A stretch of 64,000 nt of DNA from an uncultured Verrucomicrobiae bacterium (GCA_963837955.1 CAWIPH010000002.1:3584001-3648000); one strand, 5' to 3'. Positions 15,573-51,872 are shown, counted from the first letter of the stretch. Program-made: numbers and translations. Notes: a model not told the origin generated them from the sequence alone.

Positions 15573-15608
15573 TTATTCCTCCTATTCTCCGCCGCCCCGC
15601 CGGTTCAC

Positions 15609-15644: not shown

Positions 15645-15685
15645 GTCGAAAAGTCTCTAGTTTTCTAGTCGTTTCTGAGCTTACT

Positions 15686-16210: not shown

Positions 16211-16464
16211 TGCGGCGTTGCCTGATCCCGCCGTCGCTATGCGCGGCCTTATCCCTTGGCGGGCGCGCCGTAGCACGAAGGTTGCGTCCTGGCTAAGGCC
16301 AAAACGATGGCTTCGGCCACAACGATTGTGAAAGGTGAGAAGTGATTGGTGAATGGTGGGAGATCTCTGCCGAGAATTTGCCGATAGGAATCCACCACCC
16401 TATCACCGATCACCAACGACACTCTCTTGACGAGGGTTTGGATTGGGCCACGATGACCCCACCT

Positions 16465-25519: not shown

Positions 25520-26575
25520 CTAAATAGCTTCGGCGATTGCCCGGCCAACCTGCTCGGTCGTGGCCTCACCACCAATATCGCGCGTTCGCGGGCCCTGACT
25601 AAGAACGGCTTCAATCGCGTTTAGAACCGCAGCCCCTGCTTCAGGATGACCTAGATGATCGAGCATCATGGCGCCGCTCCAGATCTGGCCGATCGGATTG
25701 GCGATTCCTTTGCCGGCGATGTCCGGCGCAGAACCGTGAACCGGTTCGAACATCGACGGAAATTCTCGTTCCGGATTCAGGTTAGCCGAAGGCGCGATGC
25801 CGATGGTACCGGTAACCGCTGGTCCAAGATCGCTCAAGATGTCGCCGAATAGATTGGAACCAACAACCACATCGAACCAGTCCGGGTGGCTGACGAAGTG
25901 TGCAGTGAGAATGTCAATGTGATATTGATCCACGCGAATCTCAGGATAATCGGATGAAACCGCCTTCACCCGTTCATCCCAAAACGGCATGGTCACCGTA
26001 ATGCCGTTGCTCTTTGTGGCAGAGGTCAGGTGCTTTTTCGGTCTCTTCTTGGCCAGCTCGAATGCGGAGCGCAGAATGCGATCGACACCACGTCGGGTAA
26101 AAATCGACTGCTGCGTCACGATCTCGTCCTCGGTCCCTTCGTAAATGCGTCCACCAACCGATGAGTACTCGCCTTCGTTATTCTCGCGTACGATCAGAAA
26201 ATCAATGTCGCCCGGTAGGCGGTTCTTCAGCGGGGATTCAATGCCGGGCATCAATCGAACCGGGCGCAGGTTAGCATACTGGCGGAAATGACGCCGAATC
26301 GGAATGAGTAAACCCCACAGGGACACATGATCTGGTACCGGAGGAAAACCGACCGCTCCCAGAAAAATCGCATCGTGATGGCGGATCTGGTCCAGCCCGT
26401 CTGCAGGCATCATCCTTCCCGTCTTCTGATAGAACTCACAACTCCAGGGCAGATGATCCCACTCGAACTCGATGCCGAACTTGCGGCCCGCCGCGTTTAG
26501 AACACGGATACCTTCCGGAACAACTTCCTGACCGATACCGTCCCCCGGAATGGTTGCGATGTGATAACTCTTCAT
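25520..26575 (-). CDS. Tartrate dehydrogenase / decarboxylating D-malate dehydrogenase (DmlA/TtuC family)
   Basis: IPGDGIG.EV, DHVSLWGLL, RENNEGEYS, TSATKSNG, SNLFGDILSDL and SMFEPVHGSAPDIAG. Confidence 0.92.
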   Translation of the reverse strand: MKSYHIATIPGDGIGQEVVPEGIRVLNAAGRKFGIEFEWDHLPWSCEFYQKTGRMMPADGLDQIRHHDAIFLGAVGFPPVPDHVSLWGLLIPIRRHFRQYANLRPVRLMPGIESPLKNRLPGDIDFLIVRENNEGEYSSVGGRIYEGTEDEIVTQQSIFTRRGVDRILRSAFELAKKRPKKHLTSATKSNGITVTMPFWDERVKAVSSDYPEIRVDQYHIDILTAHFVSHPDWFDVVVGSNLFGDILSDLGPAVTGTIGIAPSANLNPEREFPSMFEPVHGSAPDIAGKGIANPIGQIWSGAMMLDHLGHPEAGAAVLNAIEAVLSQGPRTRDIGGEATTEQVGRAIAEAI

Positions 26576-36346: not shown

Positions 36347-37936
36347 ATGAGTCACGCAATCACGCCAAGCGGACGTTCGATAAATCCATGGTGGATCGGA
36401 TTGACGCTGACCATCGCCACCTTCATGGAGCTGCTGGATACCAGCATTGCGAACGTCTCGCTCCCGCACATCGCGGGCGGTCTCGGAACCAGTCTCGACG
36501 AAGCAACTTGGGTCCTGACCAGTTACCTGGTAGCCAACGCCGTCGTTCTTCCACTGAGCGCCTGGTTGAGTCGCGTCTTCGGTCGAAAGAACTACTACAT
36601 GACTTGCGTCGCCCTATTCACGCTCAGCTCGTTCTTTTGCGGGATAGCTCCGAACCTCGGTACCTTGATTTTTTGCCGGGTGCTGCAGGGAATTGCTGGC
36701 GGCGGCCTAGCTCCCTCGGAACAGTCCATGCTGGTGGATGCCTTCCCGCCAGCCAAACGCGCAGCGGCCTTTGGGCTCTACAGTATGGCTATCGTGCTGG
36801 CTCCGGCTCTTGGACCGACTCTCGGTGGGTGGATAACAGATAATTCCTCCTGGCGCTGGGTCTTCCTCATTAACATTCCGGTCGGCTTCCTGTCGCTTTT
36901 CCTGACAAGCCGGCTAGTCACCGATCCGCCCGCATTTACCGAAGAGCGCCGCCGGATCAAGGCTTCCGGTAAGGCTCAGGTCGATTACCTTGGAATTCTG
37001 TTGTTCGCGGTCGGCTTCGGGTTTCTAGAGGTCGTCCTCGATAAGGGTCAAGAGGATGATTGGTTCAGCAGCCCATTCATCACCACATTCACAGTGATCA
37101 GTGTGATTGCGCTGATCGTTGCCGTTATTTGGGAGCTTCACCACAAAGATCCGGTGGTCGATTTGACGCTATTGGGAAATCGAAACTTCGCACTGGCTTG
37201 CATACTGTTTTTCTTGTTCGGATTTATCCTGTTCTGCAGCACCGTGCTGATGCCTCAACTCTTGCAAACGCTGGACAACTACGACGCTACTACGGCCGGA
37301 ATGGCGCTGACTCCTGGAGCTCTGGTTATTGTGGCCATGGCACCGTTCGTCGTACGACTCACCCCGATCGTCGGAGCGAAACGGCTTATTTTGATTGGGT
37401 TCTTCTTCTTGGCGGTGGCGGTGTGGCATTTGGGGAATCTCAGTCTGACCGCCGACTATTGGGTCTTCGCCCAAGCGCGCATGCTGCAAGGATTTGGGCT
37501 CGGATTTCTGATCGTCCCGATCACGCAGGTCGCCTATTCCTATCTTCCGCTAGAGAAGAACAATAAGGCGAGCAGTCTCACGAATCTATTTCGCAACGAG
37601 GGCGCCAGTTTTGGTATCACGTTTGCAAACACCATGTTGGCACAGCGCGGCCAATTTCATCAAAGTGTACTTGCGCAGCACCTAACTCCCGACAACTCAA
37701 TTTACCGCGATTGGCTGCAACGAGTAACCAGCGCATTCATGCATGCCGGATATTCGGCCGTGGAGGCAGCGAACCGAGCTGAGGCCCAATTGTATAGCGT
37801 TTTAAATCAGCAGGCGTCGCTACTCTCCTACCTTGATTCGTTTGTCGGCCTGATCGTCGCAGCCTGCGCCGGCCTGGCTTTCGCGTTGGTCATCAAGAAT
37901 TTCAGGCCGCCCGGTAAACCCGCGGACGCGCATTGA
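36347..37936 (+). CDS. DHA2 MFS efflux permease (EmrB/QacA family)
   Basis: LDTSIANVSLPHIAG, WVLTSYLVAN, GPTLGGWITDN.SWRWVF.INIP and KGQEDDWF. Confidence 0.93.
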   Translation: MSHAITPSGRSINPWWIGLTLTIATFMELLDTSIANVSLPHIAGGLGTSLDEATWVLTSYLVANAVVLPLSAWLSRVFGRKNYYMTCVALFTLSSFFCGIAPNLGTLIFCRVLQGIAGGGLAPSEQSMLVDAFPPAKRAAAFGLYSMAIVLAPALGPTLGGWITDNSSWRWVFLINIPVGFLSLFLTSRLVTDPPAFTEERRRIKASGKAQVDYLGILLFAVGFGFLEVVLDKGQEDDWFSSPFITTFTVISVIALIVAVIWELHHKDPVVDLTLLGNRNFALACILFFLFGFILFCSTVLMPQLLQTLDNYDATTAGMALTPGALVIVAMAPFVVRLTPIVGAKRLILIGFFFLAVAVWHLGNLSLTADYWVFAQARMLQGFGLGFLIVPITQVAYSYLPLEKNNKASSLTNLFRNEGASFGITFANTMLAQRGQFHQSVLAQHLTPDNSIYRDWLQRVTSAFMHAGYSAVEAANRAEAQLYSVLNQQASLLSYLDSFVGLIVAACAGLAFALVIKNFRPPGKPADAH

Positions 37937-38142
37937 GGTAGGGCGGATGCTCCAGCCTCCGCAATGCGGTGCGCGATTGGTCGAGCACTCGATGCCGGAG
38001 CCACAGGATCCGGACTACGCTCAACGGTAGGGCGGATGCTCCAGCCTCCGCAATGCGATGTGTGATTGGCCAAGCGCTCGATTCCGGAGCCAGAGGATCC
38101 GGACTACGCTCGATGGTGGGCGGAGTCGGGTTTCGCCCTACC
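37937..38142. repeat. Tandem 89-bp GTAG-headed repeat (2 units plus a partial)
   Basis: Units start at 37937, 38026 and 38115 (ggtagggcggatgctccagcctccgc...ggatccggactacgctc) and end in ttcgccctacc. Between convergent genes. Confidence 0.85.
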
Positions 38143-38240
38143 AATCAGGGATTACCAACCAGGGATGATTACTACGTCGGCAGCGGTCCCGAAAATATCC
38201 GAACGATGTGGTAAAGTATCGAACGCGCGGGAGCGCGTCC

Positions 38241-39668
38241 CTACCCTCCGAAATTCACAACTAGGGTCTTTGGCTCGGTCATCTCCTCCATGGCATACTT
38301 CACGCCTTCACGGCCGAAGCCGCTCAGCTTTACTCCTCCATAAGGCATGTTCTCCACCCGATAGGTCGGCACCTGGTTAATGAGCACGGCCGCTACTTCG
38401 AGTGATTCGTACGCTTGGTGAGCGAGTTTCAGATCACGCGTAAACACCCCGGTTTGCATCCCCCATTGTGAATGATTCACTTTGGCGATCGCGTCGGCGA
38501 AGTCATCGTACGGTTCAAGCACAACAACCGGAGCGAATGCTTCTTCGCAGCTAATCGGTTGATCTTCCGGCACCTGCTCCAGGACAATCGGTCCGACACA
38601 CTGACCATCGATCGTCTTTTCCGTGGCCAGTTTCGCACCTGCCGCAACCGCTTGATCAACCCACTTGGAAACCTTTTGCACCGCCTCCGGCGCAATCATC
38701 GGACCAATCACCGTCTCGCGACCGCGCGGATCGCCGGTTTTCACTTTGTCTCTTACGTAACCGAGGAAAGCATCTCGAAATGCTCCATAGATTCGGCTCT
38801 GCACGTAAACCCTTTGCACGCTAATGCAAGATTGACCGGCATAGCCAAAAGCGCCGTTGGCAATCGGCGCAATCTTGCTTTCCCACTCGGCATCCGTGTG
38901 AACGATGGCAGCTGCGTTACCGCCAAGTTCCAGGCAAACTTTTTTGGTATTACATTTTTCTTTAATCTTCCAACCGACGGCAGCGCTGCCGGTGAACGAA
39001 ACCATTTTAACCCGTTCGTCGGTATAGTAAGGTTCCATCAGACCGACATCGAAAGGCACGATATTGACTAACCCAGCCGGAACACCGGCTTCCTGTAGCG
39101 ATTCAGCCAGAAGGAAAGCGGTAAGCACCGTCCGCGGCGACGGTTTAATAACGATAGAATTACCCGCGGCTAGGGCCGGAGCCACCTTGTGAGCAACGAG
39201 ATTGAGCGGAAAATTGAACGGCGTAATTCCAAAGATCACTCCAATCGGGAAGCGGCGCACTGAACCGGCATGCTTTTTCCCCCATTCACTTCCGTCCATC
39301 GCGATGAGTTCACCATGGGACTGGCGGCATTCCGAGGATGCAAAGAGAAAAGTGTGTTGAGCACGCGCCACCTCTGCCTCGGCCAGAGTAACCGGTTTGC
39401 CCGCTTCTTGAATCAACAGGTCGACAAATTCCTGGTTCCGGCGCTTGATAACAGCGGCGACTTCGCTGAGGAAGAGCGCTCGTGCCGCCGGAGTTAATTC
39501 GCGGTTGCGCAAAAAGGCTTCATGCGCGGATTGAAACGCCTGTTCTACTTGTTCGGGACGCGCCTGAAAGTAGCTGCCGATCAGCTCATGCGTATAGGGG
39601 TTCCTCACTTCGCATGATTGGGTGGAACTGACCCAATCGCCCCCGATTAAAAATGCTTTGGGAGTCAT
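38241..39668 (-). CDS. Aldehyde dehydrogenase (GapN/lactaldehyde-dehydrogenase-like, not IolA/MmsA)
   Basis: ITPFNFPLNLVAHK, FTGSAAVG, LELGGN, AGQSCISVQR, EEAFAP and MPYGGVK.SG.GREG. 15 bp after the last iol transporter gene. Confidence 0.88.
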   Translation of the reverse strand: MTPKAFLIGGDWVSSTQSCEVRNPYTHELIGSYFQARPEQVEQAFQSAHEAFLRNRELTPAARALFLSEVAAVIKRRNQEFVDLLIQEAGKPVTLAEAEVARAQHTFLFASSECRQSHGELIAMDGSEWGKKHAGSVRRFPIGVIFGITPFNFPLNLVAHKVAPALAAGNSIVIKPSPRTVLTAFLLAESLQEAGVPAGLVNIVPFDVGLMEPYYTDERVKMVSFTGSAAVGWKIKEKCNTKKVCLELGGNAAAIVHTDAEWESKIAPIANGAFGYAGQSCISVQRVYVQSRIYGAFRDAFLGYVRDKVKTGDPRGRETVIGPMIAPEAVQKVSKWVDQAVAAGAKLATEKTIDGQCVGPIVLEQVPEDQPISCEEAFAPVVVLEPYDDFADAIAKVNHSQWGMQTGVFTRDLKLAHQAYESLEVAAVLINQVPTYRVENMPYGGVKLSGFGREGVKYAMEEMTEPKTLVVNFGG

Positions 39669-39683
39669 AACAGCAATTTCTTT

Positions 39684-40529
39684 CTAATCATCTTTCGCTT
39701 CCAGATCCTCAGCGATTCTGTGCTCCAGTTCGCTCGTCGGTCCGGTATCTCGTTTCGCAATAAGATCGAGCTCAACGGCAAGTTCGTCTAATTCCTCTCC
39801 GCCTGCCATCATTTGCAATAATTTTTCGCGGTGGGTATCGGCCTTGCGGAAGGTCCCGTAGCTCCGGCCACGATTGAGGACGGTAAAGGTGTCACCGACC
39901 GCCCACGCATGGTGCACGTTATGGGTGATGAAGATGACGCCGATCCCTTTGGCCTTGGATTGAACGGTATACTTCAAAACAACCGCAGCCTCTTTCACGC
40001 CAAGCGCCGAAGTCGGTTCGTCCAGGATCAGCACCTTCGCACCAAAATAGACGGCGCGGGCGATCGCTACCGCCTGCCGTTCTCCGCCCGATAAAGTCCC
40101 GACCGCTTGGTCCGGGTCGCGCAGCCGGATCCCGATCTTTCTTAACTCTTCGGCTGTGATCTTTTCCGCGCTGGCGGAATCGAATACCTGGACTGGCCCG
40201 AAACTCTTTTTCGGTTCGCGTCCGAGGAAAAAGTTTCGGGTGATGCTCATTAACGGCAGCATCGCCAAATCTTGGAACACCGTAGCGATGCCAAGGTCAA
40301 GCGCTTGCCTTGGAGAATCCAATTCTACCCGGCTGTTCAGAAAACGGAACTCACCGCGGGTTGGCCGATGGACACCCGAAAGTATCTTGATCAAAGTCGA
40401 CTTTCCTGCGCCGTTGTCGCCAAGTAAGCAGTGCACTTCGCCCGGGAACAACTTGAACGAGATATCCTGAAGCGCCGTTACCTTTCCAAAAACCTTGTCG
40501 ATCCCGTGCAACTCAATGATCGGTTCCAT
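39684..40529 (-). CDS. Sugar/inositol ABC transporter ATP-binding protein
   Basis: [23 protein letters not shown] and DEPTSALG. Confidence 0.92.
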
Positions 40530-40570
40530 TAGTTTCGCCGTTGTTTGGGAATTAACCATAACCGGGTGCC

Positions 40571-41557
40571 TCAATTCGAACGTAGGGCCTGATGTCGTAG
40601 ATAGCTATTCAACAACACTGCAGCCAATAGCATCCCGCCCAACACCGCTCTGAACCAATCCGTGCTGATCCCGGTGTAGAAGATCCCTTGCTGAACCATG
40701 CCAAGGATCAACGCGCCGATCGTAGCCCCGAAGACCGATCCGTAGCCCCCGGTGAGAAGACATCCACCGATCACCGCGGCGGCAATTGACTCCAGTTCCT
40801 TCTGTTCACCTCGCAACACGTCTGCTGAACCCGTGTTCAACACTTGGATTACCGCCAGGAGCGTGGCAGAGGCGGCGGTCATCATGAACAGGGAAATTTT
40901 GACGCGAGCAACTGGTACGCCTACGTTGCGTGCGGCCAGCGCGTCCCCGCCAGAAGCGAAAATCCAGTTTCCATACGGGGTTTTGAACAGCACCCAACCC
41001 AGAACTATGGTGAGGACAATCCACCACCAGATGGAAATCGGTAATCCGAGTGGGCGCCCCGTGAAGATGATAGCGAGCAGATCGCCCTCGATATAGGCTC
41101 GCAGGCCGGATGCTCGAGTGAAGTTAGTAAATAGGAGGGTCAAGCCAATCGTAAATCCTCGTAATAGGTAGAGTGATGCCAGGGTAATAATAAATGAGGG
41201 AAGGCGAGTTTTCACAACCAGCCAACCGTTCACGTAGCCGATCAGCAAAGAGAACGAGAAAGCTAGTATAATTCCGAGCCAGAGTGGCCAGCCAAATTGA
41301 CTAACCGGAATAGCGATAATCATTCCAGCTGCGCCGATCATTGAGCCCACTGAGAGATCAAACTCACCGGCTATCATCAACAGCGACACCGCAGTAGCCA
41401 AAATCCCCAGCTGTGCCGAGACCTCAAGATAGTTGATCGTTCCTTGGGCCGACAAAAATCCCTGCTGACCTGCGACCGTGGCAAATAGAGCAAAGATGGC
41501 GATGGCCGCAATGCACGCCCCGAGCTCGGGCCGAACAAGCATTTTTCGCAGATTCAC
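40571..41557 (-). CDS. Sugar/inositol ABC transporter permease (RbsC-like)
   Basis: [17 protein letters not shown] and [19 protein letters not shown]. Confidence 0.92.
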
Positions 41558-41576
41558 AGCGCGCCTTCCAGTTTAA

Positions 41577-41790
41577 GAATGGAGTATTGGAGTGTTGGAG
41601 TAATGGAGTAAGGCGTGGCTGCTGGCGAGGTAGATCATGTTGGATTCATCGATGACCAGCGTTTCGATCCTGGCGCAGTGCGGGACGGCAGTCCCTTCCA
41701 TCGAAACCTCGTTTGCGTCCCGGAGGCTCTCTCCATCATCGCACGACTCCAACATTCCATCACTCCATTACTCCATCTCGATCACTCCTC
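41577..41790. repeat. Inverted octamer arrays (TGGAGTNN)4 ... (ACTCCANN)4 forming a long hairpin
   Basis: 41580-41611 tggagtat-tggagtgt-tggagtaa-tggagtaa and 41746-41777 actccaac-attccatc-actccatt-actccatc. Confidence 0.75.
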
Positions 41791-41799
41791 CGCTCTATC

Positions 41800-42747
41800 C
41801 TAGCGAATCCCTTTCTTACTGAGATCGATCACCTGTTTAGCGGTTTCAGCTGTCACAAAACCCGGACCCGTTAACACAGTTTCATTCGCCGGCAAAAGCC
41901 CGTATTTGATGTAGTTTGCCATGATTACGACCGCCAAATAACCCTGTAGATACTGCTGTTGATCGATCGCGAAGTCCATCTGCTTCTTGTCAATTGCTTG
42001 CAGGACAGTCGCCGACAAATCGAAAGTGCCGAACTTAACTTTCCCGACCATCCCTGCGCTCTCCAGCGCTTGCAGAGCCGGTTCGGAACCGGTTGGACCC
42101 AGCGCGAGAATTCCTTCGACGTCAGGATTCTTCTGCAGGTAACTGGCTACCGCATTGCGAGCTTCGGTGAAGTCCATTTTGACAGCAAGTACCTCGGCGT
42201 TGGTACCAAGTCCTTCCGAGAATCCTTTCGCGCGCAAGTCCAGTGCAACATTTCCGACCTCTTGGTTGATCACAACCGCCTTTTTCACGCCCTGTGCCTT
42301 CATCCGGGCGCCGGCTCCTTTGCCAGCAATTTCTTCTTCTTGTCCGACGTGCAGGAGACAACCCAGCTTCTTCGAGACATCCGAGCCGGAATTAATCGAA
42401 ATAACTGGAATCTTCGCAGCAACTGCCGCTTGGATTGACTTTCCCAAGGCGTCTGCATCCGGGATTGACACAATCAGACCATCAGGCTTAGAAGCGATGG
42501 CGGCGTCGATCAACTGTGACATGGCGACCATGTCGAATTTTTCAGGTGCACGGTATTCGACGTCGCTACTCGTTTCCTTAGCGGCCGCCACGACACCATT
42601 CTTCACGACTAACCAGAATGAATCAGATACTTGACCATGGGTAACTACAATAATCTTCGGTTTCTTCTGGGCCTGAGCCGAGAGAGGGATCGCCAGGGCG
42701 GCGACGGCAAATACCGCGAGTAAACGCAGTTTAGTTAGTTTAATCAT
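41800..42747 (-). CDS. Sugar/inositol ABC transporter substrate-binding protein
   Basis: Signal peptide, VTHGQ.SD.FW.VVKNG and FAIDQQQYLQGY (periplasmic binding protein type I). Confidence 0.92.
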   Translation of the reverse strand: MIKLTKLRLLAVFAVAALAIPLSAQAQKKPKIIVVTHGQVSDSFWLVVKNGVVAAAKETSSDVEYRAPEKFDMVAMSQLIDAAIASKPDGLIVSIPDADALGKSIQAAVAAKIPVISINSGSDVSKKLGCLLHVGQEEEIAGKGAGARMKAQGVKKAVVINQEVGNVALDLRAKGFSEGLGTNAEVLAVKMDFTEARNAVASYLQKNPDVEGILALGPTGSEPALQALESAGMVGKVKFGTFDLSATVLQAIDKKQMDFAIDQQQYLQGYLAVVIMANYIKYGLLPANETVLTGPGFVTAETAKQVIDLSKKGIR

Positions 42748-42790
42748 TATGTTGGGGGGTTGGGGTTGGGGAATAAATCAGTGAGGCGCA

Positions 42791-43588
42791 TTAGACAGCT
42801 TCCGCCAAAGATGTTTCAGGCGACGGACCAGCCAGGCGATAGGGAATCTCTCGCGCGGCAAAGGCTTCCAAGAAATGAGCCGGGATACCTGGATCAGTAA
42901 TGATCATCGCAATTTCGTCGAGCCGCGCGTAGGTCGCCAGGCAAGCGTGTCCGAACTTTGACCCATCGGATAGCACGTAAGATTCGTCAGCGGAGCGAAT
43001 CATCGCGCGTTTCACCTCAGCATCTAACGGATTCGGCGTGCTGTGTCCGTGAGCGATGGTTGTACCGGAAGATCCCAGGAAAGCTCGGTCGGCATGATAA
43101 CTTTCCAGAGTTTGAACTGCCGTTGGACCAATCAGCGCTAGACTATGATTACGAACTTGTCCGCCCACCAGGAGCAACTCGTATCCGGCCCGGGAAAGCT
43201 CGAGCGCTACGGGCACTGAACTTGTAAGCACGTAGAGCGATTGGAATTTGCCGACTAGTGCTGACGCCAACGAGAGCGTAGTGCTACCTGCATCTATGAT
43301 GATGGTGTCACCCTCGTGAATGTATTCCAGCGCGGCCCGGGCGATCGCTTCTTTCTGTTCGGCCTGCAAATTCACTTTCTCCATGAAAGAGATGTTGAAT
43401 CGACTTCTGTGCGAAAAGACGGCGCCTCCATAGGTTCGCTGCAGAAGTCCCTGCTCTTCGAGCTCGGTTAGATCCTTGCGAATGGTGACCTGACTGACTG
43501 CGAAGCGCTCGGACAGGTCTTCGACCCGGACGCTTCCAGCTTCCTCCAACGAAAGGAGGATCTTGCGACGTCTCGCTTCGGCAGTCAT
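42791..43588 (-). CDS. DeoR/GlpR family regulator (IolR-like)
   Basis: VSQVTIRKDL..LE..GLL.RTYGGA, IDAGSTT and D.SKFG. Confidence 0.92.
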   Translation of the reverse strand: MTAEARRRKILLSLEEAGSVRVEDLSERFAVSQVTIRKDLTELEEQGLLQRTYGGAVFSHRSRFNISFMEKVNLQAEQKEAIARAALEYIHEGDTIIIDAGSTTLSLASALVGKFQSLYVLTSSVPVALELSRAGYELLLVGGQVRNHSLALIGPTAVQTLESYHADRAFLGSSGTTIAHGHSTPNPLDAEVKRAMIRSADESYVLSDGSKFGHACLATYARLDEIAMIITDPGIPAHFLEAFAAREIPYRLAGPSPETSLAEAV

Positions 43589-43622
43589 TCCAAATTCGTC
43601 CACGGTTAGCGCGTTGTATTAG

Positions 43623-44441
43623 TTACTTGGCCCCAATCGGAACGGTGATGGGGTTTCCACTCCAATTCGTCGCAACCCAGTCGTACTCCGGGTCATTGAC
43701 CGCCGAGATGCGCCGAACATCACCGGCCAAAAAATTCAGATAGTAAGCGTTGGTGCCCGGAGCTTTTACCACTGGGTGGTATCCTTCGTGCACTAACACC
43801 AAATCGCCGTTCTGTACCGGTATTGCGATATCGAGGTCGGTACCGCGAGTATAAATGCGCTGAATCGCAAATCCGTTACTTGGTTGAAACCGGTAGTAGT
43901 AAGTTTCCTCGTGATAGGACGAGTGATCCCGCGTGTCGTGTCGATGCGGAGGAAAGCTCGACCAGTTGCCGCTCGGCGTATGAATCTCAAAGGCGGTTAG
44001 TCTTTCGGTCAGCTGATCCGAGTCCGCCAGCGTGCTCACGCTGCGTTTGGCGTTAGCGTCACCGCGGATGCCGACCGAAATTTCGGAGCGCCCGATAACT
44101 CGTGTCGGAAGTCGCCCTTCCGCCGGCGCACCACCTATCGCTAACTCAGCCGGCTCGGTGGCCTTGACCGAAAACTGCGTTTGCGGCGGTAGATAAAAAA
44201 TGTCAGTAGGACCGGCGAAAACGCTGGCCCGCTCGAACGGATGATCCCTTTTGCCAAAAGAGCAAAATCCCTTTCCGGATAACGGCACAACAATTACTTC
44301 ATTAGCGCCGGTATTTAGTTCCACACTGTTCCCGGGGTCGAGCGCTTCCACCCGAAACGAAAGATACTTCCAACCTGCCGTTTCTGGCGTGATGTCGATT
44401 CGGGTCCGGCTGGTTAAATCGGGTCGGTAATGCCGTTTCAT
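43623..44441 (-). CDS. iolB: 5-deoxy-glucuronate isomerase
   Basis: ITPETAGW.Y, TPSGNWSSFPPHRHD, EETYYYR, GYHP and YYLN.LAG. ATGA overlap with the upstream gene. Confidence 0.92.
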   Translation of the reverse strand: MKRHYRPDLTSRTRIDITPETAGWKYLSFRVEALDPGNSVELNTGANEVIVVPLSGKGFCSFGKRDHPFERASVFAGPTDIFYLPPQTQFSVKATEPAELAIGGAPAEGRLPTRVIGRSEISVGIRGDANAKRSVSTLADSDQLTERLTAFEIHTPSGNWSSFPPHRHDTRDHSSYHEETYYYRFQPSNGFAIQRIYTRGTDLDIAIPVQNGDLVLVHEGYHPVVKAPGTNAYYLNFLAGDVRRISAVNDPEYDWVATNWSGNPITVPIGAK

Positions 44442-45454
44442 GTAGTAATCTCCGAAAGCTTCACGGACCGCTTTTCTCTCCAACTACGGGTTGCCGCGAT
44501 AGCTAATCGCAGCGTTTCCAATGCGTCCTCTGCGCCGGGGGTCGGCGGTTGGCCATTCTGGAGAGCCTTGAAGAAAGCTTCTATTTCGAGCCGGTAGCCG
44601 GCAGCGAAACGATCCGGGAAATTTTCGAAGTGATCAAAGCTCGCCGCGAAGTTGCGCGAGAAAACGGCTGGAGTTTTCTGAACTGCTTCGACCACCACTT
44701 TTCCTTCCGCTCCAGCGATCTCGGTTCGGATATCATAACCCCAATTGGAGCGGCGGGACGTCTCGACTACCCCAAAGGCGCCATTAGCGAAACGCAAGAA
44801 TGCTACCGCCGTATCGGCGTCGTCTGCCTCGGCAAACCGGGAGTCGATTAAGACGGTGCCCCAGGCGTGAACCTCCTCGACTTCGCCCACCAGAAAGCGG
44901 GCCAGATCAAGATCGTGGACAGCCATGTCGAGAAAAAGTCCGCCGCTTTGCCGAAGAAACTTCAGACTGGGCGGATAGGTATCGCGGCTAAGCGCTCGAA
45001 ACGTTTCGATCCGACCGAGTTCACCGGCATCGATCCGCTTTTTGGCGGCCACGTATCCCGGATCGTACCGGCGCATAAACCCAAGTTGCACTTGCGCTTT
45101 AGACTCGCGGACGAGTTCGACCACTCGTTTTGTTTCGGCCAGGTCCAAGGCGATCGGCTTTTCGCTGAAGACCGCTTTACCGGCGCGTATCGCCAATTCG
45201 ATTAACCGAGCATGTGTGTCGGTCGGAGTTACAATCACGACCGCGTCAACCGAGGGATGGTTGATTGCCTCTTCAATTTCGGTGGTAGCGATCTCAGCGC
45301 CGGAAAGCCGTTTGCCGGATTCGGCTGATTCCAGATTCGGGTCAGCCACGACGACTACTTGGACATCCGACAAGCCGCCGAGATTCCGGAGGTGTGTTTC
45401 GCCCATCCGACCAACGCCAAGGAAAGCAACCCCAATAGTAGAGCTGGTTTTCAT
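44438..45454 (-). CDS. iolG: Inositol dehydrogenase (Gfo/Idh/MocA), paralog 2
   Basis: GVGRMG, TPTDTH, EKPIA, GFMRRYD, SGGLFLDMAVHDLD and GYDIRTE. Confidence 0.85.
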   Translation of the reverse strand: MKTSSTIGVAFLGVGRMGETHLRNLGGLSDVQVVVVADPNLESAESGKRLSGAEIATTEIEEAINHPSVDAVVIVTPTDTHARLIELAIRAGKAVFSEKPIALDLAETKRVVELVRESKAQVQLGFMRRYDPGYVAAKKRIDAGELGRIETFRALSRDTYPPSLKFLRQSGGLFLDMAVHDLDLARFLVGEVEEVHAWGTVLIDSRFAEADDADTAVAFLRFANGAFGVVETSRRSNWGYDIRTEIAGAEGKVVVEAVQKTPAVFSRNFAASFDHFENFPDRFAAGYRLEIEAFFKALQNGQPPTPGAEDALETLRLAIAATRSWREKRSVKLSEITT

Positions 45455-45565
45455 TCTAAAGTCCTCCTGGACTCGAAAATCTTCGTGCGCGCCGCCGGAG
45501 GAGGTCTGACGCAAGCCTTCGAAGAGTTTCCTTACGTGCCTGGCCAATCATCGCTCTCATCGTGG

Positions 45566-46576
45566 CTAACCAATCTCTTGCAGCTGGACGAGCCGGCCAA
45601 GCTTTTGGCTTTGGGTTGCGGCTAATCCGATCCGCAATGCACCGATTGCATCTGCAGCGCCGGGACTCGGACTTGTCCGTTCTAAGACCGCGGTAAAAAA
45701 AGATTCTAATTCGGCCCGAAACGCATCCCCGAACCGATCCATGAAGAAATGATGATGATCTTGCTCCGAACCACCTTCCCTGAAAAAGCGTAACGGAGTT
45801 TTTCGTTCCGCCTGCACGACTAGTTTACCCCTCTCGCCAAATACTTCTGTCACGATGTCGTAGCCGTAAACCGCACGCCGCGAATTCTCGATCACTCCCA
45901 GGGCTCCATTTTTGAAACGCAAGATTGTTGTTGCGGTATCGACGTCGCCTAACTCTGCGGCATCCTGGCTGAAGCGAGCGACTCCGACCGCAAAGACGGA
46001 CTCCACTTCACCGACCAAGAAGCGGGCGAGATCGAAGTCATGGATCGCTTGATCCAAAAAAAGCCCTCCGCTTTTCGCGAGGTATTCTTTTGGTGGCGGC
46101 CCCGGGTCACGACCCACCGCCCGAAACTGGTCAATGCGGCCTAATAATCCCTGTTCAATTCTTTTCCGCGCTTCCGCGTAGCCTGAATCAAATCGTCTTT
46201 GGAATCCGATTTGAAATGGAACGCCGCTCTCTTTGACGATTGCGAGGGCTCGCTTGGTCCGCTCCAGGTCAAGCGCAACCGGCTTCTCGCAGAAGATCGC
46301 TTTGTTTTTGCGTGCGCTCTCTTCAATTAACTCCGCGTGACTATCCGTCGGAGTGCATATGACGACTGCGTCCACCTCACGTGAAGATAAAATCTCGGCA
46401 GTCTGATCGGTGGCCGTCGCACCCGGTATGGCCGCAGCCATTTTGCGGGCGGCCTCCAGACGCGGATCGCAGACCGCAACCACTTGAACCCGGGGATCGG
46501 CAATCAAACTCTTACTATGTTCTTGACCGATTCGCCCGGCGCCTAGCAAAGCCACCCGGAGTTTTGCGTCGCTCAT
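45566..46576 (-). CDS. iolG: Inositol 2-dehydrogenase (Gfo/Idh/MocA), paralog 1
   Basis: GAGRIG, CEKPVA, GFQRRFD, RDPGPP, SGGLFLDQAIHDFD and NSRRAVYGYD. Confidence 0.88.
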   Translation of the reverse strand: MSDAKLRVALLGAGRIGQEHSKSLIADPRVQVVAVCDPRLEAARKMAAAIPGATATDQTAEILSSREVDAVVICTPTDSHAELIEESARKNKAIFCEKPVALDLERTKRALAIVKESGVPFQIGFQRRFDSGYAEARKRIEQGLLGRIDQFRAVGRDPGPPPKEYLAKSGGLFLDQAIHDFDLARFLVGEVESVFAVGVARFSQDAAELGDVDTATTILRFKNGALGVIENSRRAVYGYDIVTEVFGERGKLVVQAERKTPLRFFREGGSEQDHHHFFMDRFGDAFRAELESFFTAVLERTSPSPGAADAIGALRIGLAATQSQKLGRLVQLQEIG

Positions 46577-47499
46577 CGTGCTTGTTTTCTTTTGATTTGC
46601 TCCGCTACGCGCCGGGCCGACAACTGGTATTTATCGAGTAGAAACTCGTTCGGGGCGGATTCGCCCCACTCGTCTTGCATTCCGAGACGAAATACCCGCC
46701 GCGGCGAGTACTCCGAAAGTATTTCGGTGACCAAACCGCCCAGACCACCCAGACGGCTATGCTCTTCCACCGTGAACACCAGATCAAATTTCTCACAAAC
46801 TCTTAAGAGATCCTCGTACCGTAGCGGCTTGATCGAAGGAACATGGAGAACAGCAGCTGAAATCCCTTCTTTCTCGAGCTCCTGCGCCGCCTCGAGGCAC
46901 CGAGAGGATTGCGGCCCGGTGGAGATCATCAACAGATCGGATCCGTCGCGCAGCTGGTGCACTGCTCCGGGTTCAAACCGATAATCCGGTCCAAAAACGG
47001 CCGGACTCGGATCACGAGTCAGACGCAGATAAACCGGTCCAACATAGTCGCTCGCCCAGTGAATCATCGCCGCGCATTCGAATTCATCGGCGGGCGCAAG
47101 CACCGTCATTCCCGGCATCGCCCGCATGATGGCCAGATCCTCGACGTCCTGGTGAGTCTTCCCGGTGAATCCGGTCAGTAAGCCGGAGTAGGCTGCACCT
47201 ATCTTTACGTTCGCATGGGTTTGCGCCACCAACATCCGGACCGGGTCAAGCGCGCGATGCGTGAAGAAAATCGTAAATGACGACAGCCAGGGAACAAATC
47301 CAAGCGCTGCCATCCCGACGGCAGTGCCTACCATATTCTGTTCGGCGATCCCCATTTCCAGAAAACGGTCAGGGTGCGCTTGCGCAAATTTGTCCGCTTT
47401 AGTCGAGTTCGCCAAGTCGGCGTCCAAGACCACGATCGATTCATTTTGTCGCGCGAGTTCGCTGAGAGTCTCGCCGAACACATCCCGAAGCGCTTTCAC
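46573..47499 (-). CDS. Transketolase, C-terminal (pyrimidine-binding) subunit
   Basis: LDADLA.ST, GIAEQNM, G.THQ..ED, GPVYLRL and TVEEH...GGLG. GTG start overlaps the N-subunit stop. Confidence 0.9.
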   Translation of the reverse strand: MKALRDVFGETLSELARQNESIVVLDADLANSTKADKFAQAHPDRFLEMGIAEQNMVGTAVGMAALGFVPWLSSFTIFFTHRALDPVRMLVAQTHANVKIGAAYSGLLTGFTGKTHQDVEDLAIMRAMPGMTVLAPADEFECAAMIHWASDYVGPVYLRLTRDPSPAVFGPDYRFEPGAVHQLRDGSDLLMISTGPQSSRCLEAAQELEKEGISAAVLHVPSIKPLRYEDLLRVCEKFDLVFTVEEHSRLGGLGGLVTEILSEYSPRRVFRLGMQDEWGESAPNEFLLDKYQLSARRVAEQIKRKQAR

Positions 47500-48374
47500 T
47501 TGGTTACCTCCTTTATCCCAAGCTCTCGCCGCGCAATTTCGAGTTCGTTGCTGTTCGCCACCTTTGAGTGCCATTCAAATTTTCCTTCCGTAAATGAGAG
47601 TCCCTTCCCTTTGGCAGTGTGAGCCAGAATCATCGTTGGTTGGCCAACTCGTCCCCGAGACTTCGAATCCTGTAGCACCGGAATAATCTCGCCAAAGTTG
47701 TGGCCGTCGATCTCAACCACGTTCCAACCGAGTCCTTTAAAGACCATTGGAAGATCGGCTCCAGACCAGGGATCTCGGCGATCCGCACGCCCGACCGCGC
47801 CAGCCTCGTTCAACCACCCAAACTGCTGTAGTCCGTTCGAGTCGAGAATCGCGGTAAGGTTTGCGACTTTGTATCGCGGTGCGATATGCAGCGCTTCCCA
47901 AACCATTCCTTCCTGGAGCTCACCGTCACCGATCATGACGAACGTTTGAAAACCAAGGCCTTTCCTCTGAGCGGCGATGGCAAAGCCAAGTCCGACAGAT
48001 AAACCCATCCCGAGCGAACCGGTCGAAGTCTCTAGCCCCGGTAATTTGGTCATATCCGGATGCCCCTGGAGCCGTGAATTTCCCTTATCGAACGTCTTCA
48101 GTTCTTCGACTGGAAAGTAGCCCCTGAGCGCCATCGCAGTGTAGAGGCCGATCGCGGCGTGACCCTTCGAAAGAATGAATCGGTCTCGATCCGGCCACTT
48201 CGGCTCGTCCGGCCGAACCGCCATAACTCGAAAAAAGAGCGCTATGAGTAAATCCATAGCTGACATCGGCCCCCCGACATGACCCGCTCCACTGGCAGAC
48301 ACAGTTTGCAGGACGTGCCAGCGGCCTTGTCGGGCTAACGATTCGAGTTCAGAAAAATCGGTGGGGTTAGTCAT
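47496..48374 (-). CDS. Transketolase, N-terminal (ThDP-binding) subunit
   Basis: GHVGG.MS, DRDRFILSKGH, LQGHP, STGSLG.GLS, GDGELQEG..WEA, DGHN and T.KGKG. Confidence 0.92.
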   Translation of the reverse strand: MTNPTDFSELESLARQGRWHVLQTVSASGAGHVGGPMSAMDLLIALFFRVMAVRPDEPKWPDRDRFILSKGHAAIGLYTAMALRGYFPVEELKTFDKGNSRLQGHPDMTKLPGLETSTGSLGMGLSVGLGFAIAAQRKGLGFQTFVMIGDGELQEGMVWEALHIAPRYKVANLTAILDSNGLQQFGWLNEAGAVGRADRRDPWSGADLPMVFKGLGWNVVEIDGHNFGEIIPVLQDSKSRGRVGQPTMILAHTAKGKGLSFTEGKFEWHSKVANSNELEIARRELGIKEVTK

Positions 48375-48450
48375 AACAGCATATTTTCAGGGTTGGTGCA
48401 TTTGTAACGTCGGCGTTGTTCCAGTTGACCGGAGCGGTAGCGATTCTCAT
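48367..48450 (-). pseudogene. iolE: Deletion scar of 2-keto-myo-inositol dehydratase (iolE): only the first about 15 codons remain
   Basis: The ATG overlaps the iolD stop (ATGA) and encodes MRIATAPVNWNNADV, the IolE N-terminal motif type (IAPxxWxNxD). It then runs out within 84 bp. Confidence 0.7.
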
Positions 48451-50339
48451 GCAATGATCGGGCGCTGATTCTTCGTCGCTGCTTCGTACAACTCGCGTGT
48501 CTTCCGCGTTTTCTCGAGCTCGCTCACCTCGGCCACCGGCACATCCCACCAAGTTCCCATTCCAGGCATGCGAGATTCGGGATCGACCGGCACGACGACG
48601 ACCGCGATGCGATCCGATTGCCGCGCCTGGACCAGCGCTTCCTTCACTTCTGCTGCCGTGGTCGCATAGAACGCCCGAGCACCCATCGATTCAGCATGCT
48701 TCGGGAAATCAATCGGAACATATGAGCCAGTCGGAGCCGCATTCCCGTTACCGCGAAATCGTAATTCGTTTCCGAAATCGGACACACCGACAGCTCGCTG
48801 AAGTCCGAGTATGCATTGATAACCATGGTTATCGACCAGCACGATCGTGATCCGGATACCTTCGGCCACGGCCGTCACAATTTCGGAATTCATCATGAGA
48901 TAAGAGCCGTCGCCCACCATCACGACAACCTCCCGCTCCGGATCAGCGAGTTTGGCGCCAAGACCACCGGCAATTTCGTAGCCCATGCATGAATAGCCGT
49001 ACTCCAAATGATAGGCCTTTGGATCCTCTGGTCGCCAGAGCCGGAGAAGCTCTCCGGGCAATCCGCCGGCCGCACAGACGACGGTGGCTTTTCCACCGAA
49101 GCTCTCGTTAACCAGTCCAATTACGGCGGTCTCTGCCAGCTTCCCGGGAGCATCTGTCTTGACCGTGCGGAGATCGGTCACCACCGCATCCCATTCCCTC
49201 TTTTGTGCGTGGACCTGGTCCCGGTAATCTGGCGACGTACCAGTATATCCGCTCTCTTTGAGAGCGCGATGCAAAGCAGCCACCGCACGCTTCGCGTCCG
49301 CCACGATCGGAAGGGCGTGCAATTTATGCACGTCCATCGGCGCAACGTTTATTCCAATGAAATGGACAGCCGGATTTTGAAAAGCTGATTTGGAAGCGGT
49401 AGTAAAGTCGCTTAACCGCGTTCCCAGGTTGATGATCAAATCGGCCTCATAGGCAAGTCGATTAGCTGCGGTTGAACCGTTCGATCCGATCGGACCAGCA
49501 TTCATTGGATGATTCCAATTTAGGACACCTTTCCCTGCCTGCGTCTCGGTGACCGGAATTCCAAACTCTTCGGCAAATCGCCGCAGTTCTTCGGTCGCCT
49601 CCGAGTAGATGGTGCCACCGCCCGAAATAATCAGTGGCTTTTTCGCCGACTTAATCAGCAGCGCCGCGGCCTCAAGAAGTTCCGGTTCCGGCACGGGTCG
49701 TCGCACGTGCCAGGTGCGTTCTTCAAAAAGCCCAACCGGATAATCATATGCTTCCGTTTGTACGTCTTCGGGTAACGCAATCGTGACTGCTCCGGTTTCG
49801 GCCGGATCGGTCAAAACTCGGAATGCTTCAGGCAAGCTGCCGATGAGTTGCTCGGGGCGGCTGATTCGATCAAAGAACCGGGAAACCGGTCGAAATGCAT
49901 CATTCACACTGACATCGCGTTCAGAAGGATGCTCGAGTTGCTGCAACACCGGATCGGGAATGCGGTTAGCGAAGTAGTCACTCGGCAATAGCAAGACCGG
50001 CAACCGATTCACGGTGGCGGCGGCCGCACCGGTTACCATGTTCGTGGCGCCCGGACCTATCGAAGTTGTACACGCGAAAGTGGCCAGACGATTGCGTTGT
50101 TTGGCGTAGGCCGCTGCCAGATGCACCATGGCTTGCTCATTCTGGGGCCGATAAAACCGGAGGCCTTCAGCGCCCGCTAATTCGGCCAAACCCTGGCCTA
50201 ACCCGCCAACATTGCCGTGACCGAAGATTCCCCAAAAGCCTTCAATGAATCGATGACGTTTCCCATCGCGTTCCACGAACTGGTTAGCGACGAAGCGGAC
50301 GAGGGCCTGACCGGCGGTGAGTCGAGTTACGCGATCCAT
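48447..50339 (-). CDS. iolD: 3D-(3,5/4)-trihydroxycyclohexane-1,2-dione acylhydrolase
   Basis: RLTAGQAL, GIFGHGNV, NEQAM, TSIGPGATNMVT, PDPVLQQ, AAGGLPG.L..LW, YHLEYGYSCMGYE and WWDVPV. Confidence 0.96.
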   Translation of the reverse strand: MDRVTRLTAGQALVRFVANQFVERDGKRHRFIEGFWGIFGHGNVGGLGQGLAELAGAEGLRFYRPQNEQAMVHLAAAYAKQRNRLATFACTTSIGPGATNMVTGAAAATVNRLPVLLLPSDYFANRIPDPVLQQLEHPSERDVSVNDAFRPVSRFFDRISRPEQLIGSLPEAFRVLTDPAETGAVTIALPEDVQTEAYDYPVGLFEERTWHVRRPVPEPELLEAAALLIKSAKKPLIISGGGTIYSEATEELRRFAEEFGIPVTETQAGKGVLNWNHPMNAGPIGSNGSTAANRLAYEADLIINLGTRLSDFTTASKSAFQNPAVHFIGINVAPMDVHKLHALPIVADAKRAVAALHRALKESGYTGTSPDYRDQVHAQKREWDAVVTDLRTVKTDAPGKLAETAVIGLVNESFGGKATVVCAAGGLPGELLRLWRPEDPKAYHLEYGYSCMGYEIAGGLGAKLADPEREVVVMVGDGSYLMMNSEIVTAVAEGIRITIVLVDNHGYQCILGLQRAVGVSDFGNELRFRGNGNAAPTGSYVPIDFPKHAESMGARAFYATTAAEVKEALVQARQSDRIAVVVVPVDPESRMPGMGTWWDVPVAEVSELEKTRKTRELYEAATKNQRPIIA

Positions 50340-50450
50340 AATTGGACATCCTTATCGAAAAGCCTGCAGGGGGGCTTGTTGAGATCTCGGTTAGACCTCC
50401 GAGAAGGGCTCTGTTCTGGGGATGAGTGGAGAGAACTCATGGGGTGCACA

Positions 50451-50499
50451 TCTTTCGTTTTCTTTCGTTCTGATATAGAAACGAAACTCGGCCAGTCAA
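50451..50499 (-). promoter_or_regulatory. Putative iol promoter/operator
   Basis: Inverted repeat TTTCGTT-N10-AACGAAA (50463-50486) plus tandem TCTTTCGTT, next to a minus-strand TTGACT hexamer (50499-50494). Confidence 0.5.
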
Positions 50500-50730
50500 G
50501 TAGATTTCCGCAAAAATCTGCTCCAACTCCAAGACAAGAAAGGATGGATTCACCATCTCGACGGCCGAAATCTGTTTCGACCGAGAGCGAACACCGACTT
50601 TTGATCTGAAACGAGGTTCTCAGGAGCGAGTTTGCCGGCGCTGCTAGCAAATTGGCGGAAAAAGAGCGGTAATGAACGTCCTCTAGCCGCATTCTAAATT
50701 CCAAATCCCAGACTCTAGACTCCGTCCCCG

Positions 50731-51417
50731 TCACACCTCCACACTCTGACCAGGCTCGAGAATGTGGATCTTCGCTCCTTTACCTTCAGCCAACCGAGCA
50801 AACTCTTTCGGGTCGCCGAATAGAGGCGGAAAGGTGCCATAATGAATCGGTACGACGGCTTTAGGGCGCAGGAATTCTACGGCTTTCGCGGCATCTTTCG
50901 GCCCCATCACGAAATGTTCGCCGATGGGCAAGAATGCGAGATCGATCGGGACATCGTCTCCGATCAGTTTCAGGTCGGAGAATAGCGCCGTATCGCCGGC
51001 GTGAAACACTACCTTATCCGCGGTCCGAATGATGACTCCGGCCGGTTCTCCAAGATAGATGGGGTTTCCGTCTTCTGCCATCACACTAGAGCTATGGATC
51101 GCCGGAGTGAACTTAACTGCTCCAAAGGGATACTTGCACCAACCCCCGTGGTTTTGCGCAGATACCTGGGCTCCTTGGTTCCCTAACCACAATGCCAATT
51201 CATAGGTGGATATCACGAGTGCGCCGGTTCGTTTGGCGATAGAAAGGGTATCACCTACGTGATCGCCGTGACCATGCGTGACCAGGATAAAATCAGGATC
51301 CAAGTCCTCCGCCTTTACCGCAGCCTTTGGATTCCCCGTCAAAAATGGATCGATCGCGATACGCGTATTATCAAATTCCAAGTAAACGGCGGCGTGCCCG
51401 AGAAAGGTCGCTTTCAT
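50731..51417 (-). CDS. Metallo-beta-lactamase-fold metal-dependent hydrolase (UPF0173-like)
   Basis: LGHA, IDPFL.GNP, THGHGDH, HSSS, HAGDT, LPIG and PIHY.TF. Confidence 0.9.
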   Translation of the reverse strand: MKATFLGHAAVYLEFDNTRIAIDPFLTGNPKAAVKAEDLDPDFILVTHGHGDHVGDTLSIAKRTGALVISTYELALWLGNQGAQVSAQNHGGWCKYPFGAVKFTPAIHSSSVMAEDGNPIYLGEPAGVIIRTADKVVFHAGDTALFSDLKLIGDDVPIDLAFLPIGEHFVMGPKDAAKAVEFLRPKAVVPIHYGTFPPLFGDPKEFARLAEGKGAKIHILEPGQSVEV

Positions 51418-51503
51418 GTACTTCACTAAGCGAAATAAACGCCTGAGCAAGCCGGAGATCATCATCGATCAGAATCCCCTCGGAGCCGACGAACATTGAC
51501 GTG

Positions 51504-51858
51504 AACGCCCACAATCGGTAGGGCGAACGCTTTTGCGTGAGCCGCTCAGAGGTTCCCGGCTCAAATAAATTTTCGCCCTACCGGCGCTGGATCAACGCCC
51601 ACGATCGGTAGGGCGAACGCTTTGCGTGAGCCGCTCAGGCGTTCCCGGCTCAAATAAATTTTTGCCCTACCGGCGCTGGAACAATGCCCACGATCGGTAG
51701 GCGCCTGGATCAACGCCCACGATCGGTAGGGCGAACGCTCTTGCGTGAGCCGCTCAGGCGTTCCCGGCTCAAATAAATTTTCGCCCTACCGGCGCTCGAT
51801 CAACACCCACGACCGGATAGGGTGAACGCTTTTGCGTGAGCCGCTCAGGGGTCTCCGG
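51504..51858. repeat. Tandem GTAG-type REP cluster (about 4 units of 89-90 bp, one internally deleted)
   Basis: ggtagggcgaa...ttcgccctacc units start at 51517, 51607, (51696 partial), 51725 and about 51815. Confidence 0.9.
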
Positions 51859-51872
51859 CCCGTCGGTCGATC

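Follow-up and report, generated by a model that had tools for sequence, protein, structure and literature searches.

In the canonical pathway of Bacillus subtilis, myo-inositol is degraded through IolG, IolE, IolD, IolB, IolC, IolJ and IolA (Yoshida et al. 2008, as cited in PMC9007349). Price et al. (2022; PMC9007349) report IolC-DUF2090 as the common 5-dehydro-2-deoxy-D-gluconate (DKG)-6-phosphate aldolase, and find IolC-DUF2090 in 16 of 26 inositol utilisers and IolJ in 2 of 26; known aldolases thus cover 18 of the 26 and leave 8 unexplained. Here we describe an operon at positions 38241-50339 of a 64,000-nucleotide stretch of DNA (the window) from an uncultured soil Verrucomicrobiae bacterium (GCA_963837955.1), in which a split transketolase and an aldehyde dehydrogenase (ALDH) are encoded together with inositol genes. 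We consider it fairly likely that this operon encodes the uptake and catabolism of myo-inositol, and perhaps of related cyclitols, with a non-canonical lower half in which the transketolase would use DKG and D-malate would be formed.

Transketolases dedicated to one catabolic pathway are known. D-Apiose catabolism relies on a split, pathway-specific apulose-4-phosphate transketolase that is encoded in a sugar catabolic operon and takes a phosphorylated donor. In sulfoquinovose breakdown, an in-cluster 6-deoxy-6-sulfofructose transketolase reportedly uses a non-phosphorylated six-carbon ketose with an anionic C6 group as donor and passes its C2 unit to glyceraldehyde 3-phosphate; the substrate of that pathway is a sulfonate, and two transketolase rounds are said to end in sulfoacetaldehyde. 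For inositol catabolism, full-text literature searches, with subscription journals outside their reach, gave no description of a transketolase step, in agreement with the initial annotation of the window, which knew of none. A match on Propionibacterium freudenreichii (PMC7736159) deals with the housekeeping enzyme.

The genome that holds the window (G000) has 5.62 Mb in two contigs (C1 and C2) and 54% G+C; its congener G327 was used for comparison. Metagenome proteins nearly identical to its own bear names that assign it to Chthoniobacterales in Verrucomicrobiota. Genes were identified from Pfam and NCBIfam profile scores, with 'cut-off' standing for the threshold set for a model. The operon comprises 11 intact genes, all co-oriented on the minus strand, in the order iolD, a 72-nt iolE remnant, tktN, tktC, iolG, iolG, iolB, deoR, three ATP-binding cassette (ABC) genes and ALDH. 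IolD (48447-50339), a thiamine diphosphate (ThDP)-dependent ring-opening hydrolase that forms 5-deoxy-D-glucuronate, scores 905.5 bits with TIGR04377 (cut-off 715), and IolB (43623-44441), the 5-deoxy-glucuronate isomerase, scores 266.5 bits with TIGR04378 (cut-off 205). Both inositol 2-dehydrogenases exceed the TIGR04380 cut-off of 355, the first IolG (45566-46576) with 388 bits and the second (44438-45547) with 359.6 bits; because the match of the second begins at residue 38, its real start probably lies further in than called, and its G327 orthologue has 338 aa. The transketolase consists of TktN (47496-48374; PF00456, 157.9 bits; best solved relative 6yak), the ThDP/diphosphate-binding subunit, and TktC (46573-47499; PF02779, 132.5 bits; PF02780, 85.5 bits), which carries the pyrimidine-binding and C-terminal parts. 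The last gene (38241-39668; PF00171, 452 bits) encodes the NAD(P)-dependent ALDH.

Start and stop codons overlap by 4 nt between tktN and tktC (GTGA, 47496-47499, so that tktC starts with GTG and not ATG), between tktC and iolG (ATGA, 46573-46576) and between iolG and iolB (ATGA, 44438-44441). These three had been reported in the initial annotation, and a fourth was found between the permease and ATPase genes (TTGA, 40571-40574). The profiles also agree with the gene order and identities given there, and with its statement that the operon holds no PfkB kinase, class II aldolase or MmsA. The placement of tktN and tktC between iolD/iolE and iolG/iolB, with 4-nt overlaps, indicates coupling.

The cofactor-binding parts of the enzyme are those of a transketolase. 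TktN keeps the GDGE, SKGH and GHP motifs, of which GDGE, like the conserved His motifs, can be aligned with both 6yak and human transketolase. Among solved structures, the split transketolase of Carboxydothermus hydrogenoformans (ChTK; 6yaj/6yak, 272 and 244 bits) is the closest, and the invariant E53 of TktC (MGIAEQN) lines up with Glu55 in the C chain of ChTK, the cofactor-activating Glu (PMC7661550). The substrate pocket is altered: in place of the canonical H…GEDG(P/A)(S/T)HQ, the operon TktC has Y104…G-F111-T112-G-K114-T-H116-Q, the changed positions aligning with the canonical His and Asp, and one Lys being gained. The canonical His is His461 in E. coli transketolase numbering. In the same numbering, D469 is a specificity determinant by mutagenesis (PMC7661550). 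The housekeeping transketolase of G000 keeps FTHDAMGDGEDGPTHQ in the pocket. Across the 80 related loci described below, the motif Y…G[FLY]TGKTHQ stands clade-wide where canonical transketolases have H…GEDGxTHQ; the Tyr is kept in 80 of 80 and the Lys in 79 (Met in L160), and the Asp gives way to Thr or, in most Actinomycetota, to Val. TktC residues R5, S32 and R162, which are invariant in the sequence alignment, align with the phosphate-binding Arg/Ser/Arg of human transketolase; in the E. coli enzyme, the substrate phosphate is bound by R358, S385 and R520.

Since the canonical pocket motif is not kept, the operon enzyme is, as judged from its sequence, a specialised transketolase rather than a standard EC 2.2.1.1 enzyme. 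The loss of an acidic residue and the gain of a Lys would suit a carboxylate near the reaction centre, and the retained Arg/Ser/Arg would suit a phosphorylated acceptor. That the enzyme is an ordinary pentose-phosphate transketolase that only happens to stand in the operon is extremely unlikely: although all transketolase cofactor-binding motifs are kept, its clade is separate (SH-aLRT 100, quick tree) and has the altered pocket, and the enzyme is found in 0 of 176 iolD-less genomes of the order sample. G000 moreover encodes two full-length transketolases, one of them in a Tal-Pgi/G6PD/6PGL operon, a few genes from its DUF2090 gene, and the enzyme of the inositol operon is therefore accessory, in keeping with the non-housekeeping role proposed for it in the initial annotation. 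A second, distant split transketolase pair is also present in G000.

Going by their families, IolG is the enzyme that oxidises inositol, IolD the one that opens the ring and IolB the one that isomerises the product to DKG. DKG is a ketose with a free C1 hydroxyl which, from its ketose end, has the fructose-like (D-threo) configuration at C3/C4; in the canonical pathway its phosphate is cleaved by the IolJ aldolase to dihydroxyacetone phosphate (DHAP). The retention of IolB beside the transketolase agrees with a need for the ketose form. In the route that we propose, the dehydratase step would be supplied by an IolE paralogue encoded elsewhere in G000, since the operon iolE is deleted. The split transketolase would take DKG as ketol donor, cutting between C2 and C3, and the C2 unit would go to an aldose phosphate, for example glyceraldehyde 3-phosphate, to give xylulose 5-phosphate. 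The leftover would be (R)-3-hydroxy-4-oxobutanoate (D-malate semialdehyde, OHC-CHOH-CH2-COOH), which the operon ALDH, acting as a D-malate-semialdehyde dehydrogenase, would oxidise to D-malate; a GabD-type enzyme would do so in other lineages. D-Malate could then be converted to pyruvate and CO2 by a TtuC/DmlA-type dehydrogenase (25520-26575) or, alternatively, to oxaloacetate by a YdiJ-like FAD/Fe-S dehydrogenase (C2:2522019-2524946). Unlike the route through IolC, IolJ and IolA, this one would use no ATP. The initial annotation had already proposed a transketolase acting on DKG followed by ALDH oxidation to D-malate, and the support that this proposal now receives is wholly comparative-genomic.

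For the order, 201 genomes including G000 were surveyed, counting iolD when over its cut-off, TktN orthologues at E ≤ 1e-80 and at least 63% identity, and IolC at E ≤ 1e-60. iolD was found in 25 of the 201, a TktN orthologue in 18 and IolC in 7. The window's family (f1) has iolD in 18 of 23 genomes, the transketolase in 17 and IolC in none; 17 of the 18 iolD genomes carry the transketolase, the exception being 81% complete, and none of the five genomes without iolD does. Outside f1, all seven iolD genomes have IolC, and the iolD-less genomes of the whole survey (176/176) have neither transketolase nor IolC. Thus, in the order, the transketolase tracks iolD and complements iolC. A 300-genome sample of the phylum gave no orthologue outside the order, the best match having 47% identity; the family pattern came to light through the survey of the order.

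Annotation of two canonical clusters of the order gave a kinase-aldolase fusion (NF047869, 1010 bits) together with MmsA (683-723 bits). The family's transketolase clusters are of two types. The first, iolD-iolE-tktN-tktC-iolG-(iolG)-iolB, is arranged as in the window. In the second, tktC is directly followed by a gene for a 976-aa YdiJ-like FAD/Fe-S D-2-hydroxyacid dehydrogenase, and a GabD-type succinate-semialdehyde dehydrogenase (SSADH; 820-847 bits to NF008415, cut-off 828) follows iolD-iolB. The 976-aa protein was considered as a kinase-aldolase and rejected on the above identification. FumC and a response regulator, encoded beside several clusters, were taken as synteny and not as function; fumarase acts on L-malate.

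Beyond the order, a TktC profile run against species-representative genomes gave more than 565 relatives, of which the best 80 loci were kept and annotated by tblastn with reference proteins; 42 of these have full 10-kb flanks. The best 80 loci come from Verrucomicrobiota, Chloroflexota, Actinomycetota, Thermaceae, Gemmatimonadota and one Steroidobacteraceae metagenome-assembled genome (MAG). iolD or iolB is present in 41 of the 80 (26 of the 42 with full flanks), a GabD-type ALDH in 18 (15 of 42), a YdiJ-like gene in 11 (8 of 42), an ALDH like the window's in 5 (5 of 42), MmsA in 5 (5 of 42) and a kinase-aldolase in 3 (3 of 42). IolC over its cut-off was not found in the four Chloroflexota and one Steroidobacteraceae carriers tested, nor in a 1.6-Mb Thermaceae MAG. 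A sample of 201 Chloroflexota genomes, with high-scoring transketolases defined by E ≤ 1e-100, gave iolD in 34, IolC in 10 (9 with iolD) and the transketolase in 17 (5 with iolD). None of the 201 combines transketolase and IolC, and 25 of the 34 iolD genomes are without iolC. It is somewhat more likely than not that a kinase-free lower branch of inositol catabolism is widespread, in at least four phyla. In it, this transketolase clade would split DKG into D-malate semialdehyde and a C2 unit that enters the pentose-phosphate pool, and the semialdehyde would go on through D-malate to pyruvate or oxaloacetate.

The enzymes that the predicted products would need, GabD-type, TtuC/DmlA-type and YdiJ-type, recur beside the transketolase in other genomes, which the initial annotation had not foreseen and which speaks for the products that it predicted. 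TtuC/DmlA-type genes over the TIGR02089 cut-off stand inside the transketolase operon at 5 of the 80 loci. Three are Actinomycetota loci with the order tktN-tktC-ttuC-aldH, whose ALDH is 39-41% identical to that of the operon described here; two have iolD-iolE-ttuC-tktN-tktC-iolG-iolB-SSADH, one being labelled Thermaceae and the second coming from an uncultured bacterium that the tree places with Thermaceae. The window's own TtuC/DmlA-type tartrate/D-malate dehydrogenase (25520-26575, minus strand; TIGR02089, 585 bits, cut-off 470) is not encoded in the operon; it shares 54% identity with the product of the gene between tktC and ALDH in locus L133. Apart from neighbours for a CPA2 transporter and a copper P-type ATPase, its gene is isolated, at a distance of 11.7 kb from the operon ALDH. 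The YdiJ-like protein of G000 (C2:2522019-2524946) is 79% identical to the clustered one. The recurring ALDHs, GabD-type and lactaldehyde-dehydrogenase-like, would suit a C4 semialdehyde acid rather than the C3 one of MmsA, and the TtuC/DmlA and YdiJ types, two unrelated families, would suit a D-2-hydroxy acid; L-malate would call for no enzyme of this kind.

The same enzymes bear on another reading, in which the transketolase splits DKG chiefly as a lyase that lets out free glycolaldehyde, and the ALDHs and the FAD/Fe-S enzyme take glycolaldehyde through glycolate to glyoxylate, besides or instead of the C4 branch. The tandem GabD-type ALDH pairs of seven Verrucomicrobial transketolase modules could match two aldehydes, and the YdiJ-like protein has the FAD_binding_4/FAD-oxidase_C fold also found in glycolate oxidase subunits. 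We nevertheless judge this reading very unlikely. The invariant R5, S32 and R162 argue that the co-substrate is phosphorylated, TtuC-type enzymes are not known to act on glycolate, and the release of free glycolaldehyde by known transketolases is merely a slow side reaction. The seven modules with two tandem GabD-type ALDH genes are L100, L102, L104, L106, L107, L109 and L146; three of these run straight into a canonical iolD-iolB-mmsA-iolC/aldolase cluster.

The initial annotation had suggested a search for iolC and iolJ in the rest of the genome, and the outcome fits its reading: the best IolC match in G000 is fructokinase-like and reaches 186 bits (cut-off 300), so that none passes, and the genome has no IolC-DUF2090 fusion. 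Its sole DUF2090 gene was considered as a split IolJ, a reading rejected because the gene belongs to the Tal-Pgi/6PGD/G6PD/6PGL (pentose-phosphate) operon. This operon (L187, C2:3418926-3430149) encodes a 919-aa transaldolase-phosphoglucose isomerase fusion as well as the standalone DUF2090 protein, which may be a class I-like aldolase that serves central metabolism. Five class II aldolases are encoded in G000, none near iol genes. The operon ALDH scores only 201 bits with the MmsA model TIGR01722 (cut-off 448), and a true MmsA (682 bits) is encoded on contig C1. An unusual combination was seen in an operon at L177 (C2:4581958-4586945), where a DeoR regulator, a class II ketose-bisphosphate aldolase and a PfkB kinase accompany E1-alpha and E1-beta of a 2-oxoacid/acetoin-type dehydrogenase.

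A quick IQ-TREE tree was built from 92 TktC rows, 82 relatives and 10 other split transketolases. The 82 relatives form one clade apart from the 10 (SH-aLRT 100), and an inner clade of 71 rows (SH-aLRT 99) contains all 43 rows linked to iolD or iolB. The 11 basal rows include none with an iol link, and 8 carry the motif [KR]TGKTHQ. This sister group comprises L136, L137, L138, L149, L150, L168, L171 and L173; the neighbours of the L150 transketolase are class-III aminotransferases, an SDR, a TIM-barrel enzyme and a peptide/opine-type ABC importer. In the tree, sequences from Thermaceae and Steroidobacteraceae nest within Verrucomicrobia, beside that of G000, and this nesting suggests transfer.

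The 'iolE scar' of the initial annotation proved genuine, both ends of the gene being kept and its middle deleted in comparison with the intact iolE (975 nt, 324 aa) that G327 has at this position. The 72-nt gap between iolD and tktN consists of roughly 44 nt from the start of iolE and 28 nt from its end, with ∼900 nt gone in the alignment to G327. What remains forms a 27-codon mini-open reading frame (ORF) (48367-48450, minus strand), whose ATG overlaps the iolD stop codon (ATGA) and whose TAA lies 4 nt beyond the tktN ATG. The scar is spanned without gaps by contigs from four DNA runs of one study, which may include the source sample. Two IolE-like paralogues are encoded elsewhere in G000, both by intact genes, with 223 and 199 bits (IolE cut-off 290). 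Upstream of iolD (50619-50731), ∼2.3 kb with a GFO-type oxidoreductase and a Zn-alcohol dehydrogenase are missing relative to G327, as are ∼3 kb between an acetoacetate-CoA ligase and an MBL hydrolase.

These losses raise the question of whether the operon is decaying in the G000 strain, which would then not grow on inositol; this would concern the strain and not the route. Besides the deleted iolE and the loss of the GFO/Zn-alcohol dehydrogenase pair upstream of iolD, a second iol locus, with a broken iolE and several truncated genes, speaks for decay. Yet all 11 remaining genes of the operon are intact with their overlaps preserved, the deletion spares the coupling junctions and the two IolE-like genes are available, and we regard decay as quite unlikely. 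The second locus (L017, C2:2224001-2244000) has three iolG-like genes, an SDR, iolD, iolB and an IolE-like gene, and is likewise without kinase, aldolase or MmsA. Its iolE copy is interrupted by three TGA and two TAA codons, a levoglucosan-dehydrogenase-like gene is in two pieces, and an ABC ATPase and a permease are truncated, damage that could be decay or assembly indels.

Several observations weigh against the route from DKG to D-malate, or against its generality. Without iolE, the operon leans on IolE paralogues that score under the cut-off. The models nearest to the operon ALDH, lactaldehyde dehydrogenase (409 bits) and sulfoacetaldehyde dehydrogenase (372 bits), are both matched below cut-off, and this ALDH type is confined to the genus of G000 and a few Actinomycetota, most f1 transketolase clusters being without it. 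The surveyed genomes of the order are kin, and the family pattern may reflect one or few evolutionary events. The mutual exclusivity with iolC expected in the initial annotation stands in f1 (0/23 with IolC) and breaks down elsewhere: G338, outside f1, has IolC and tktN-tktC on one contig (tktC being found by tblastn), three Verrucomicrobial loci have both routes, and so do the Actinomycetota genomes tested (4/4 with IolC over cut-off), including Angustibacter, where a canonical iolC-iolB-iolG-mmsA module directly adjoins the transketolase module. Besides Angustibacter, Terrabacter terrigena, Kineosporia aurantiaca and Tessaracoccus bendigoensis are cultured organisms with both. Neither iolD nor iolB lies within 10 kb at 16 of the 42 full-flank loci, and in Chloroflexota iolD was not seen in 12 of the 17 transketolase genomes and 20 of the 34 iolD genomes have neither transketolase nor IolC. 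Because of these transketolase-without-iolD and iolD-without-either genomes, the transketolase clade probably serves further substrates besides, and more kinase-free routes probably exist.

Some of these points would be explained if the transketolase served cyclitol catabolism through another ketose, made by GFO and TIM-barrel enzymes from a cyclitol, aminocyclitol or sugar, and DKG were handled by an unrecognised kinase and aldolase. The 16 full-flank modules without iolD or iolB have GFO and TIM-barrel genes, and this account would also accommodate the 12 Chloroflexota and the presence of both routes in Actinomycetota. G000 itself has two unassigned PfkB kinase/class II aldolase pairs that might in principle substitute for IolC/IolJ; they lie away from iol genes, however, and their kinases reach only 86-102 bits against the IolC cut-off of 300. 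A further point in favour comes from locus L115, where a DegT-type aminotransferase gene follows iolB. Against it, the transketolase occurs within f1 only in iolD genomes (0/5 of the iolD-less), it is translationally coupled to iol genes, and we know of no other acyclic ketose in the IolG-E-D-B sequence. Taken together, a different ketose appears unlikely, and we retain DKG as the predicted donor. L115 (Chloroflexia) has iolD-tktN-tktC-iolB followed by the aminotransferase, a LacI regulator and an SBP_bac_6 binding protein (11751-13040, 15316-16353), neighbours that hint at an aminocyclitol substrate.

The remaining genes of the operon, all on the minus strand, encode a DeoR-family regulator (42791-43603; PF08220, PF00455) and an ABC importer made up of a substrate-binding protein (41800-42747; nearest to the rhizopine-binding protein model with 355 bits, below its cut-off of 420), a permease (40571-41557; PF02653) and an ATPase (39684-40574; PF00005). 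Promoter and terminator scans over 37500-52000 gave sites no more numerous than in shuffled sequences, and did not inform the limits of the operon. An ORF at 50327-50734 (135 aa) has no family match.

Inositol and phytate-derived cyclitols are major carbon sources in soil and gut, and genome predictions of their use rely on IolC/IolJ. If the proposed route is true, pathway annotation would change for many uncultured soil lineages, and part of the gap would be filled for inositol utilisers without IolC and IolJ. A natural transketolase with a non-phosphorylated, carboxylate-bearing donor would be added to those known; the change of Asp to Thr/Val sits at a position deliberately mutated by enzyme engineers. 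D-Malate, and with it the TtuC/DmlA and YdiJ-type enzymes, would also gain a physiological source, explaining the retention of D-malate-specific dehydrogenases.

On balance, we would class the transketolase route as a variant of the known inositol pathway. It shares with the canonical Iol pathway IolG, IolD and IolB over their equivalog cut-offs, IolE in relatives, a DeoR regulator and a sugar-type ABC importer. It differs in that the operon has a split transketolase and a non-acylating ALDH and is without IolC, IolJ, the DUF2090 fusion and MmsA, and in that pentose phosphate and D-malate are predicted to be formed without ATP, in contrast to DHAP and acetyl-CoA. IolC-DUF2090, the form found in the seven iolD genomes outside f1, answers the same question, the fate of DKG, by kinase-dependent aldol cleavage into C3 + C3, whereas a ThDP-dependent split into C2 + C4 is proposed for the operon. 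The sulfoquinovose enzyme, likened here by description only, is also a dedicated in-cluster transketolase, its substrate being a sulfonate and not a carboxylate, and the D-apiose enzyme is likewise a split transketolase in a catabolic operon, with a phosphorylated donor and no cyclitol link. The two-chain architecture and cofactor ligands are common to the operon enzyme and the split transketolase of Carboxydothermus hydrogenoformans, but the latter keeps H…GEDGASHQ where the operon enzyme has Y…GFTGKTHQ.

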